From an uncultured delta proteobacterium (lineage in GTDB: Bacteria > Desulfobacterota > Syntrophia > Syntrophales > Smithellaceae), in contig CAVSRI010000002.1 of assembly GCA_963730275.1 (NCBI GenBank), positions 25,704-89,703 on the forward strand: a stretch of DNA of 64,000 bases, given 5' to 3'. Within the stretch, counting starts at the first letter, position 1. Each line of letters opens with the position of its first letter. Under the pieces are notes generated by a model, which was not told the DNA's origin, made no database searches, and saw nothing but the letters and a program-made list of their open reading frames with translations. Below, in pieces: positions 21,024 through 63,665 of this stretch. The translations under genes and the position numbers were made by a program.

Positions 21024-21099
21024 GGGCGGGTAGCTCAGCTGGGAGAGCGCCACGCTTACACCGTGGATGTCACAGGTTCGAGTCCTGTTCCGCCTACCA
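21024..21099 (+). tRNA. tRNA-Val(TAC)
   Basis: Anticodon arm CCACG-CTTACAC-CGTGG; CCA end. Confidence 0.97.
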
Positions 21100-21145
21100 T
21101 TAATGTTAATTCAAAAAACTGTAATTTAAATTATAATGATTTTTG

Positions 21146-21222
21146 GGGGTCGTAGTTAAGTTGGTTATAACGCCGGCCTGTCACGCCGGAGGGCGTGGGT
21201 TCAAGTCCCATCGGCCCCGCCA
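21146..21222 (+). tRNA. tRNA-Asp(GTC)
   Basis: Anticodon arm CCGGC-CTGTCAC-GCCGG; CCA end. Confidence 0.97.
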
Positions 21223-21230
21223 GAAAATCA

Positions 21231-21264
21231 AAGGGAGTCAGCTGTTATAGCGACTCCCTTTTTT
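21231..21264 (+). terminator. Rho-independent terminator after tRNA-Asp
   Basis: AAGGGAGTC...GACTCCCTT stem followed by T run. Confidence 0.85.
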
Positions 21265-21407
21265 CGTGAGACTCAAATTTCAAAAACAAGGTGTATTGAA
21301 ATTTGTAAGTCGAACAATCCCGCTGAAGGCGGAGGGGATGATAGCCTCATTTCTTGGAAGGAATTTGGGTAGAGCAGTTGACTTAGGCTTCATACCCGTG
21401 ATTTGTC
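21262..21407 (+). repeat. Dispersed structured non-coding repeat, copy 1
   Basis: AGACT-hairpin-TAAGTCGAACAATCCCGC..GCGGAGGGGAT...ATACCCGTG shared with copies at 54776 and 62524. Confidence 0.85.
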
Positions 21408-54775: not shown

Positions 54776-54929
54776 ATTAGTGAAACTCCAGTTCCGACTT
54801 ATAACCTAAAGGTCACAAGTCGGAATTGGTAAGTTGAACAATCCCGCGAAGCGGAGGGGATAATACACCGCAGCTTGTTGTGGAATCGGTTTCCACAGCT
54901 TGCTTTGGGGTTCATACCCGTGATTAGCG
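54776..54929 (+). repeat. Dispersed structured non-coding repeat, copy 2
   Basis: AAACT-hairpin-TAAGTTGAACAATCCCGCGAAGCGGAGGGGAT...ATACCCGTG flanked by ATTAGTG/ATTAGCG. Confidence 0.85.
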
Positions 54930-61842: not shown

Positions 61843-62548
61843 ATGTTAACCTTAGCTTTTGATACTTCTTCTAAAACTGCCGCCGTTGCTTTATTAAGAG
61901 ATAGTGATATATTGTACGACAATATTATAATTAATACAGGCTTAAAGCACTCGGAAGTGCTAATGCCGGCAATTGATCATGCTTTAAGGGCGATATCGGT
62001 CAAAATTAAAGATGTTGATTTATTTGCCTGCACAATAGGTCCGGGTTCATTCACCGGCCTGCGCATCGGTGTCAGCACTCTTAAGGGGCTGATACTGGCG
62101 ACAGGGAAACCTGCTGCCGGAATTTCTTCCTCTGGCGGCACTGGCGTTAAACGCCGGCAAAACTTCAAAATTAATATGTTCTGTAATGGATGCCGGACGG
62201 GGGCAGGTGTACACAGCTTTTTACCGGTATGATAAAAATGAATATTTAGAGCAGATTGGTATGGAAAAAGCCGTGCAGCCGGAAAATGTATTATCCGGTA
62301 TCGACGAAGAAATAGAGTTAGTCGGTGACGGAGCTGTTAACTATGCTGATGTCATAGTCAAAAATAAAAAAATTGTAATTAATTCCAAACTGCCAAAATA
62401 TATCCATGCTTCATCTGTTGGTATTTTAGGTATGAAGAAATTTCACCGGAAAGATTTGCTCAATGCCGAAACATTAACTCCTGTCTATTTGCGTTCGGCC
62501 GATGCTCTTCCGAAAAAAGGACTATTCGAGAAACTCCAATTTCCATAA
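61843..62548 (+). CDS. tsaB: t6A biosynthesis protein TsaB (one frameshift near 62130)
   Basis: LAFDTS, HSE, GPGSFTGLRIG, then DAGRGQVY and PVYLR in the next frame. Confidence 0.9.
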
Positions 62549-62620
62549 CGAAGTGCAGGGAAATTGGTAAGTTGAACAATCCCGCAAAGCGGAGGGTATT
62601 TATAATACCCGTGATTCGAG
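62524..62620 (+). repeat. Dispersed structured non-coding repeat, copy 3 (shortest)
   Basis: AAACT-hairpin-TAAGTTGAACAATCCCGCAAAGCGGAGGGTAT...ATACCCGTG flanked by perfect ATTCGAG direct repeats. Confidence 0.85.
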
Positions 62621-62638
62621 GTTAGTTTATAACAATTC

Positions 62639-63665
62639 ATGAATAAACCTCTATTATACGAAAAATGTTTATCGACGGAAGAATCGCGGCTGAAGGCTTT
62701 ACAAAAAATCCTAAACTGGATTCAAGTGCCTTTTAAAAAAAATGATTCTATCGGCATCAAATTACACTGGGGGGAAATCGGCAATAAAAATTTCTTACCG
62801 CCGATATATGCAAAAACAATTGTTCAATGGTTGAAAAAAAATAATTTTGATCCCTTTGTTTTTGACAATACCGTTCTTTACTCCGGCGGAAGACGTGATG
62901 GAAGAAATCATTAAAAACCGCAGAAACGCATAACTATAGTCCGGATTATTTAGGTTGCCCCGTAAAAATAGGCGACGGCCTTGATGGTAAAAGCGTTATT
63001 GATTTACCCGCAGATTATAAAAATTTTGAGAAAGTTCAGGTGGGCAAAAGTAGTTCATCAGGCCGACGGCTTTATTATTTTCTCTCATTTCAAGGGTCAT
63101 ATGGAAACCGGATTTGGCGGGGCAATAAAAAATATTTCCATGGGTTTTGCCTCCCGCGCGCAGAAACAACGTATGCATGCCGACGCCAAACCAATGCCTC
63201 ATCGAGGCTAAATGTATTCAGTGCGGAGAATGTGTCGAAGTCTGTCCAACCGGAGCAGCAAAAATGGAAGGAGATGTATACCCTTCTTACGATCTGACGA
63301 AGTGTATCGGCTGCGCGCAGTGCATTGCCATGTGTCCGGAAACGGCGCTCCAGATAATTTGGGAAACCGATATTAAAATATTTCAGGAAAAGCTGGTGGA
63401 GACGGCTGCTGCGGTCTGGAGAATAATTCAAAATAAAACTGTTATTATCAATGCATTGCTTAATATTGTAGCCGAATGCGATTGTTTGCCGGGAAATCAT
63501 CGCTCCATTGCTGAGGATAAAGGTTTTATCGGAGCTTATCATCCGGTTACGGCCGATGCCGAATCAATTAAATTGATAGGCGCTGATTGTATTGATCGAA
63601 CGCACCGCAATATTCCCTGGGGAAGACAATTTGAATATGCCCGCCAAATCGGTTTTGGCGGCTGA
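62639..63665 (+). CDS. DUF362 family protein with 2x[4Fe-4S] ferredoxin domain, about 3 frameshifts
   Basis: IKLHWGEIGN, LYSGGR, SHFKGH...GGAIKN, CIQCGEC...CP, CIGCAQC...CP and CDC in successive frames. Confidence 0.85.

Follow-up and report, generated by a model that had tools for sequence, protein, structure and literature searches.

How did a cluster of hairpins come to supply the last codons of a tsaB-like gene, and why is it framed by a perfect 7-bp repeat? The question arises in a 64,000-nt stretch of DNA (the window) from an uncultured Smithellaceae bacterium (GCA_963730275.1, contig CAVSRI010000002.1, positions 25,704 to 89,703 of the forward strand), whose genome of 1.74 Mb is called G000 below. 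A preliminary description, made from the letters of the window, had pointed to three related intergenic copies of a structured element. We found that the 90-base stretch at 62526..62616 belongs, as one of many copies, to an abundant family of very small mobile DNA elements that form hairpins. In our best reading, the family carries no transposase and is kin in behaviour to the IS200-type insertion sequences (IS), that is, a new family of a familiar kind. It is probably best explained as a set of non-autonomous single-strand elements of the IS200/IS605 type, made of ends only as in PATE or REP sequences.

The three copies share the frame that had been described, with three distinct self-complementary sequences in the first hairpin, and all read as claimed. 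The window contains their 18-nt linker TAAGTYGAACAATCCCGC at just three positions (21306, 54830 and 62568), each time on the + strand, against a chance expectation of 0.08, and none of 100 shuffles reached three. Across G000, 43 places match the linker at ≤3 mismatches, five of which were judged spurious by eye. A covariance model (R1), built from 11 minimal copies with a structure supplied by us, gave 110 matches at E ≤ 0.01 in the same genome, the copy at 62526..62616 being the best of all (101.7 bits). Nine matches with E > 0.001 and one partial match were dropped, and the 100 taken forward correspond to 78 loci; 20 of these loci hold two or three units, with mixed strands in none of the 20.

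The family extends beyond this genome. The linker was found in 16 of 41 related genomes (G000 counted in): by rank, in 15 of the 24 other genomes of the same family and in 7 of 14 same-genus relatives, and in none of the 16 genomes from the other families of the order. The richest in copies is G020, with 71 linker matches. An exact scan for the core pattern, using one genome per species, returned at least 121 stretches; among the matches listed are metagenome-assembled genomes (MAGs) of Smithella, Smithellaceae and Syntrophaceae, and also MAGs of Bacteroidota (Bacteroidales, Salinivirgaceae, Lentimicrobiaceae and Prolixibacteraceae). The covariance model gave 1 to 21 matches in each of five such Bacteroidota genomes and 114 in one Smithellaceae genome. 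Plasmid and phage records gave no match to the element by blastn in distant mode, and viral contigs had no exact match to the core pattern. The literature retrieved with Smithella or Syntrophus plus repeat terms, a scope outside which ISfinder lies, gives no account of these repeats, and the portions of a 2026 comparative-genomics paper on Smithellaceae reached by a term search (PMC13685792) do not describe them.

At tsaB, the element (62526..62616, + strand) is in its minimal form of about 90 nt, running from TCGAGAAAC to CCCGTGAT(T), with boundaries uncertain by 1-2 nt each. Its left flank is the T-rich, target-like tetranucleotide CTAT (62522..62525, +), inside the last conserved tsaB codons (CTA TTC GAG), and its right flank CGAGGTTAGTTTATAACAAT (62617..62636, +) holds the displaced original end of tsaB and a short spacer. 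With the T at 62615-16 counted, the displaced end reads TTC GAG GTT AGT TTA TAA, and the ATG of the next gene is at 62639. The element is absent at tsaB in the relatives G013 and G009, where the empty orthologous site is GGACTATTCGAA|TCATG and the tsaB stop overlaps the next ATG. Part of this spacer (GGTTTATAACAATTCATG) is common to G005 and missing from G013 and G009; at tsaB, G005 has a different spacer, with GGTTTATAACAAT in common with G000. That the copy supplies the end of tsaB was borne out: the tsaB-like frame enters the element and ends in ...GLFEKLQFP*, and the G013 orthologue ends in ...GLFES*. The gene itself (window 61843-62548) is split in G000 into two overlapping open reading frames (ORFs) of 129 and 120 aa in different frames, with the break near ...AAGISS and a TsaD/TsaB domain in the N-terminal one; in G013, tsaB is a single intact frame of 230 aa. 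Either a frameshift, genuine or introduced by assembly, or a pseudogene would account for the split.

The 83-nt core of this copy and the perfect ATTCGAG at 62524-62530 and 62614-62620 were confirmed by reading. The preliminary description had, however, taken such 7-bp repeats as a feature of the family, and they are perfect (7/7) only in the tsaB copy: the heptamers are TTTCGTG and ATTTGTC (4/7) in copy 1 and ATTAGTG and ATTAGCG (6/7) in copy 2. Nor do they mark insertion. When the heptamer before AAAC was compared with the one after ..GTG in 64 complete canonical elements, identity equalled that of a control in which elements were randomly re-paired; identity of ≥6/7 occurred in 3 of the 64, versus 2.2% in the shuffles, and two of those three belong to the window, the third being simply where the following tandem unit begins. 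No target-site duplication is seen in filled/empty comparisons, and no repeat borders the clean junctions. Empty sites lack the 5' ATTNGTG, which therefore belongs to the target (..AT) and the element (TNGTG) together. At tsaB, the insertion would have fallen between CTAT and TCGAG, within the last codons of the gene, and the usual 5' head TCGTG may here have become TCGAG, keeping the Glu codon of ...GLFE. Such a change, with a coincident displaced TCGAG downstream, produces the perfect repeat, which is a local coincidence. A classic miniature element with ATTNGNG as its 7-bp target-site duplication would fit the perfect pair at tsaB and the 6/7 pair at copy 2. It is hardly credible, being already contradicted by the heptamer control in 64 elements, by empty sites without the heptamer and by the absence of terminal inverted repeats, the ends TNGTGAAAC.. 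and ..CCCGTGAT(T) not being complementary. A classic miniature inverted-repeat transposable element, moved by the DDE transposase of an IS, was likewise rejected, since it needs terminal inverted repeats and a duplication of fixed length, and neither is present.

Searching the genome and its relatives, as had been proposed, revealed a large family with polymorphic loci and visible empty sites. G013 is about 91% identical to G000, and 1.57 of 2.42 Mb were compared. Clean indels were defined as having ≤12 nt on one side and 40-800 nt on the other. Of 35 such indels, 18 carry the family (12 filled in G000, 6 filled in G013), three motif matches are coding sequence and 14 are other sequences. Of the 78 loci of G000, 27 could be placed, with both flanks collinear in the compared G013 sequence: in G013, 15 of these sites are empty, eight contain a member of the family and four contain other sequence. 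The flanks of 46 loci were not found in the compared sequence. The 15 empty loci record presence and absence alone. One polarised site shows the direction: G013, G011, G009 and G002 have it filled, G005 retains a 5' remnant, and in G000 it is exactly empty, which shows precise loss with the target restored. The turnover of the family is high. Within one long G013 alignment there are only 3 units, too few for comparing the divergence of element and flank. The earlier proposal of a mobile element stands as regards a non-autonomous element, polymorphic in presence and absence, lacking terminal inverted repeats and having a target preference and a single-strand structure; its duplication anatomy does not.

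The other two copies of the window tell a similar story. Copy 1 (21264..21402, +) lies in the T-tract of an intrinsic terminator after two tRNA genes (21024-21219) and has the cleanest junction, the empty site being CCC-T7/8-GTCC in G010, G011, G002, G005 and G013. In G000 and G009 the T-run is split by TCGTGAGAC...CCCGTGAT, with inner segments that differ. The site is therefore filled in G000 and in the more distant G009 and empty in the closer G010, G011, G002 and G013, as well as in G005, a pattern that represents either a hot spot struck twice or several precise losses. Copy 2 (54778..54925, +) is a long form, with an 18-nt insert (ATAACCTAAAGGTCAC..) in the apical loop of its module A and two AGCTTG-loop hairpins inside its module B (the modules are described below). 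It is absent in G009; G010 and G011 retain only the last ~20 nt (GGTTCATACNCGTGATT), and G013 has 49 nt of other sequence at the site. The motif ATAACCTAAAGGTCAC (window 54800-54817) has a fixed place in the module A apical loop of many copies, with 57 occurrences in G000 at ≤2 mismatches, and looks like a tiny insert or module in itself.

On its 5' side the element is preceded by a T-rich motif, most often TTTAT, and its own 3' end is GTGAT(T). The motif is a preference and not an absolute rule, TnAT being found immediately 5' of 39 of the 64 complete canonical copies. Hairpins with a minimum free energy (MFE) ≤ -10 lie upstream of 38% of elements versus 9% of random TTTAT sites, but this test is confounded by undetected upstream modules, so that only the individual examples can be cited. 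The copies at G000:C3:62148 and C31:121609 have a common left flank, ..CCTCCTCCTTGCCGCCGCGTTAT, which is the end of another repeat of ~125 nt with many occurrences in relatives; here the end of one repeat is the target for the element.

Two modules make up the scaffold. Module A has the pattern (G/A)T-GA-AAC, one unpaired base, a variable hairpin of 9-10 bp with a 14-nt apical loop, TAA, and GTT-GA-A(C/T). Module B has AATC, a CCGC-loop-GCGG hairpin, A, a GGGTAT...ATACCC hairpin of variable content, GT and GATT. In the tsaB copy, module A (62526..62577, +) comprises a 2-bp helix, the tandem G.A/A.G (62530-31 with 62574-75), a 3-bp helix AAC/GTT, a 1x3 internal loop (T / TAA) and a 9-bp hairpin (62536-62544 / 62559-62567) with the apical loop ATAACGAAGTGCAG, and the MFE fold reproduces this structure. 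The minimal module B (62578..62616, +), whose structure was supplied by us and retained by the model, is closed by AATC/GATT (62578-81 with 62613-16) and contains CCGC-AAA-GCGG (62582-92), A, GGGTAT-TTATA-ATACCC (62594-62610) and GT. Family-wide, units have 50-150 nt and two to five hairpins. Subterminal hairpins are present at both ends in a one-strand structure, a trait of IS200/IS605-type elements. Three other readings were rejected against consensus features: a hammerhead (by eye, no CUGANGA box at the G.A motif), a kink-turn (by eye, 3 bp between the 3-nt bulge and the G.A pairs) and a remnant of a group II (class C) intron, raised by the terminator-adjacent sites and the GUG... start (no visible domain V/VI features).

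Covariation was measured on 94 model matches (90 distinct) from many genomes. In this set 92.7% of cells pair, versus 24-47% in slid controls, and 12 pairs change on both sides versus 5.0 ± 1.3 in shuffles, none of 500 shuffles being as high. Changes on both sides affect 8 of the 9 pairs of the variable hairpin and 3 of the 5 basal pairs. The tandem G.A is retained in 93 of the 94 rows and A.G in 92, and the reliably aligned helices have 41 G·U versus 17 A·C. In hairpin 6, within module B, 96% of cells are paired, with 13 G.U versus 2 A.C. On the other hand, picking the matches through the invariant core left no room for variation in helix 5 or on the 5' side of helix 4, and the helix 4 counts (73% paired) are unreliable since the model shortened long copies. 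Judging by the alignment, the structure appears to be strand-specific and covarying.

In relation to flanking ORFs, whose calling in G000 was crude, the orientation of the copies is mixed: 30 loci are in the same direction as both neighbours, 21 are opposite to both, 16 and 9 are mixed, and 2 could not be assessed. Orientation follows replication in the Prolixibacteraceae genome G045, a single contig of 3.12 Mb. There, the copies are on the + strand below 1.06 Mb (6 of 6) and on the − strand above 1.27 Mb (14 of 15), and GC skew is positive to ~1.12 Mb and negative past 1.28 Mb. Together, these data show that the structured strand coincides with the G-rich one, the lagging-strand template, for 20 of the 21 copies (p = 2e-5). 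The seven over-threshold Y1 transposase genes of G045 have the same strand bias, and 3 of 12 copies examined are co-oriented with both neighbouring ORFs. The bias matches a trait of IS200/IS605 elements, for which lagging-strand-template coupling and precise excision are set out in PMC5027513.

These data bear on whether the family is one of RNA, as in the earlier suggestion of an unrecognised non-coding RNA class. A structured RNA, stand-alone or cis-acting and spread by duplication or retro-insertion, would agree with the covariation, the invariant G.A, the conserved loops, the one-strand G.U excess and fold z-scores of -1.8 to -5.8. We consider it highly unlikely. Copies have no consistent direction relative to flanking ORFs, one of them overlaps the end of a coding region, and the opposite strand folds about equally well. 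That DNA is the active form is suggested by the replichore bias in G045 and by the way in which copies are precisely gained and lost at T-rich sites. Nor does the family match Rfam: at gathering scores, the window yields only four tRNAs and leaves the element unmatched, and in a permissive scan the best matches of the 62526..62616 copy have E 1.4-7, far short of threshold. The suggestion thus gained no support; of the checks proposed with it, the one for covariation gave values above shuffles and the one for an Rfam family came back empty.

The earlier statement that no known family fits had to be revised, as anatomy and behaviour fit the IS200/IS605-type single-strand elements and the 3' module is similar to IS200 ends. 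According to PMC7290912, such elements have no inverted repeats, make no duplication and insert 3' of a tetra- or pentanucleotide. The most direct link comes from G045, which has five near-identical 176-nt copies of a sister subfamily, all five preceded by TTTAT, with module A at the start and ..GTTCATT at the end. Over the final 36 nt they are 97% identical to what immediately follows the stop of the gene for a 148-aa Y1 transposase in the same genome, where a second resident IS200 (two copies, 99.5% identical) also begins straight after TTTAT. Relatives of the 148-aa transposase in many phyla have as their right end the hairpin CCCCGNNGCTTGCNGCGGGG followed by (TA)GTT(C/T)ATT, with a similar hairpin at the left end. 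Of 102 Y1 loci scanned, 22 have CCCCGNNGCTTGCNGCGGGG, within one mismatch, after the tnpA stop; a like hairpin is found in module B of 16 of the 64 canonical copies, 43 of which have one or two AGCTTGC-type loops. Module B also aligns to IS200 left ends in three loci (L373, L379 and L382). By sequence comparison, then, module B resembles both the left and right ends of an IS200 clade. Because of these hairpins, the long forms look like IS200 ends nested in, or fused to, the minimal scaffold, and the tsaB copy looks like the scaffold without IS200-type ends.

On this basis, the elements would move as a folded single DNA strand. A Y1 (HUH) transposase acting in trans would cut the top strand after the target motif and after GTGAT, and a single-stranded circle would be excised and pasted 3' of a different T-rich motif made accessible on the lagging-strand template. 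The AATC/GATT helix closing module B would correspond to the pairing of right-end guide and cleavage site, and module A, with its invariant tandem G.A, to the left end. Arrays and nested forms could arise since the ends (..ATT) and loops (..TAAT) of the element resemble the target.

Several observations weigh against an IS200/IS605-type origin. The main gap is the cognate transposase, which was not found, and most host genomes have no Y1 transposase. Y1_Tnp does not track the element: G000, G002, G009, G010 and G011 are copy-rich and gave no Y1 match; G009 and G011 are 95-98% complete. TnpB is present in just 2 of 41 genomes. A scan of 83 Y1 loci with the full model, run unfiltered, revealed neither module A nor the canonical right end beside tnpA; the only match is a pair of units ~330 nt from a weak Y1-like ORF of 234 aa in G020 (L127:896-1167, G020:C57), which could be chance or a lead to a RAYT-like partner. 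A long copy with an ORF between the ends, which the preliminary description had proposed to look for, was seen neither in G000 nor in the compared G013 sequence, and module A has no recognised counterpart among the IS200 ends examined. The near-equal folding of the two strands, already mentioned, belongs here too. The strand bias is weak in G013 (32 versus 20, with 8 in weak-skew regions, p = 0.13) and absent in G046 (34 versus 32, with 18 weak). Junctions also vary, the left flanks ending in TTAT, TTTT, TTACT or TTGT, and some empty sites have no TTAT (TTTTT, TTACT, TTGT). In three pairs the right flank begins with C where the site is empty and with T where it is filled, and a filled G009 copy still has C there. 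Since this copy keeps C, the T may be read as a later change that completes the AATC/GATT helix.

Two more candidates concerning the mobilising system were set aside. The idea that the 3' module is an orphan guide-RNA scaffold was dropped because of the rarity of TnpB. An IS605 copy in G013 (C1:7256-8700) was rejected as parent, as its ends are unrelated and it lies in a foreign stretch of ~65% GC. The first ~10 kb of this contig (L029:1-10000, G013:C1) have ~65% GC versus 44% elsewhere and carry IS605-type tnpA and tnpB; they are either foreign DNA or a chimeric assembly join.

The same gap leaves room for other enzymes. Integron integrases act on folded attC sites, and XerCD acts on phage hairpins. 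The mobiliser might then be a tyrosine recombinase working on folded single strands, or a protein that recognises the tandem-G.A hairpin of module A. This is compatible with high turnover in genomes where no Y1 transposase was found, with a module A that has no counterpart in the IS200 ends examined, with units arrayed head to tail and with the 3' box of module A, GTTGAAC, which fits the attC core GTTRRRY of the consensus. We regard it as unlikely, since the 5' box GTGAAAC does not fit RYYYAAC of the same consensus, the copies are spread over 78 dispersed loci with no cassette arrays with ORFs, and module B and the right end of the sister subfamily resemble IS200 ends. An integron attC site as such was rejected, with one of the two boxes fitting and the dispersed loci lacking cassette ORFs. 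It is a tentative idea, with limited odds, that module A is a new kind of transposon end read by a non-Y1 enzyme, with the hairpins of module B as secondary passengers. If true, it would explain the fast turnover in Smithella-type genomes without a recognisable IS200 transposase and also the crossing into Bacteroidota.

It is also rather improbable that the copies are domesticated repeats of the REP/BIME type, with a host function (mRNA stabilisation, termination, protein binding) and occasional shuffling by a single-copy RAYT-like Y1 gene. The copies are intergenic, in some examples just after terminator-like hairpins with T-tracts, and clustered in same-strand arrays, and the linker is strongly conserved across genera and phyla. 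Longer ORFs of 160-440 aa with a Y1 domain (E about 1e-9 to 1e-18) are found widely in the order, including the one near two units in G020. However, such ORFs are equally present in the element-free G006, G018 and G023 and missing from G000, G002 and G009-G011. Inverted doublets were not found at any of the 20 multi-unit loci, and the units have several hairpins in 50-150 nt rather than a single palindrome of 20-40 nt. A locus-specific function also sits badly with the 15 of 27 loci that a close relative has empty. A REP/REPIN system with its RAYT was rejected for the missing GTAG/CGTC tag as well as for unit size, the absence of loci with both strands and the absence of Y1 matches in the five genomes just named.

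Besides the family, G000 appears rich in several miniature elements. Other short insertions are polymorphic between G000 and G013 (G000:C17:22712, C17:75971-76141, C18:14865-15043, C2:127588, C20:26146-26222). These unrelated insertions include a family of ~130-170 nt with ..ACGTATATA(T/A)AATACGCCTCGTC... Another family among the polymorphic insertions, GGAGCC..CCGGAAGCTCCCTAAAATA ... CGCGGGAT, often encloses module-A units. At G000:C2:156480-157098, one copy of the element is interrupted by about 0.5 kb with a 161-aa ORF on the opposite strand.

Numbering about 110 units in a genome of 1.74 Mb, the family accounts for a visible part of the intergenic DNA in a group of syntrophic bacteria, and it differs at over half of the comparable sites between genomes about 91% identical. 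Because of this abundance and turnover, it is a main source of small-scale genome variation there, and of trouble in assembly and annotation, including rewritten gene ends as in tsaB. It also offers a natural test case of how transposase-less single-strand elements persist and cross phyla. Should the mobilising enzyme not be a Y1 transposase, this would hint at a new chemistry of insertion.

Among known systems, the IS200 clade of loci L321-L400 (Bacteroidota, Desulfobacterota and others) has a right end formed by the hairpin CCCCGNAGCTTGCTGCGGGG and then (TA)GTTCATT. The same hairpin type and a GTTCAT tail are found inside module B of long copies, and the sister subfamily of G045 shares its last 36 nt with this right end, as given above. 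Unlike the element, the clade has tnpA and starts with (T)CTAATCTC.. instead of module A, and the canonical element ends in CCCGTGAT(T).

The REP/BIME/REPIN repeats likewise form hairpins and are numerous between genes, frequently in clusters and close to gene ends; Y1 enzymes are believed to move them through single strands. As summarised in PMC3733652, REPs are single imperfect palindromes of 20-40 nt with a conserved GTAG or CGTC tag. They often form inverted pairs and flank a single-copy RAYT gene, whereas the element has one orientation per locus and was not seen to flank a RAYT.

The pneumococcal BOX elements are non-coding, dispersed sequences built from short modules in varying numbers, with stable structures. 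By this description, they resemble the element in being a modular construction kit; their mobilising enzyme and insertion chemistry are unclear or different.

The PATEs, ends-only derivatives of IS200/IS605, differ from the element in several ways: its 5' tandem-G.A hairpin, whose 14-nt apical loop is conserved, is unmatched among the IS200 ends examined; a parent with the same two ends was not found; most hosts are without a Y1 transposase; and its units stack and nest into arrays. On the other hand, PATEs and the element have in common the lack of inverted ends and of duplication, insertion 3' of a T-rich motif, end hairpins on one strand and precise loss, to which are added the likeness of module B to the ends of the IS200 clade and an orientation tied to the replichore in one genome.

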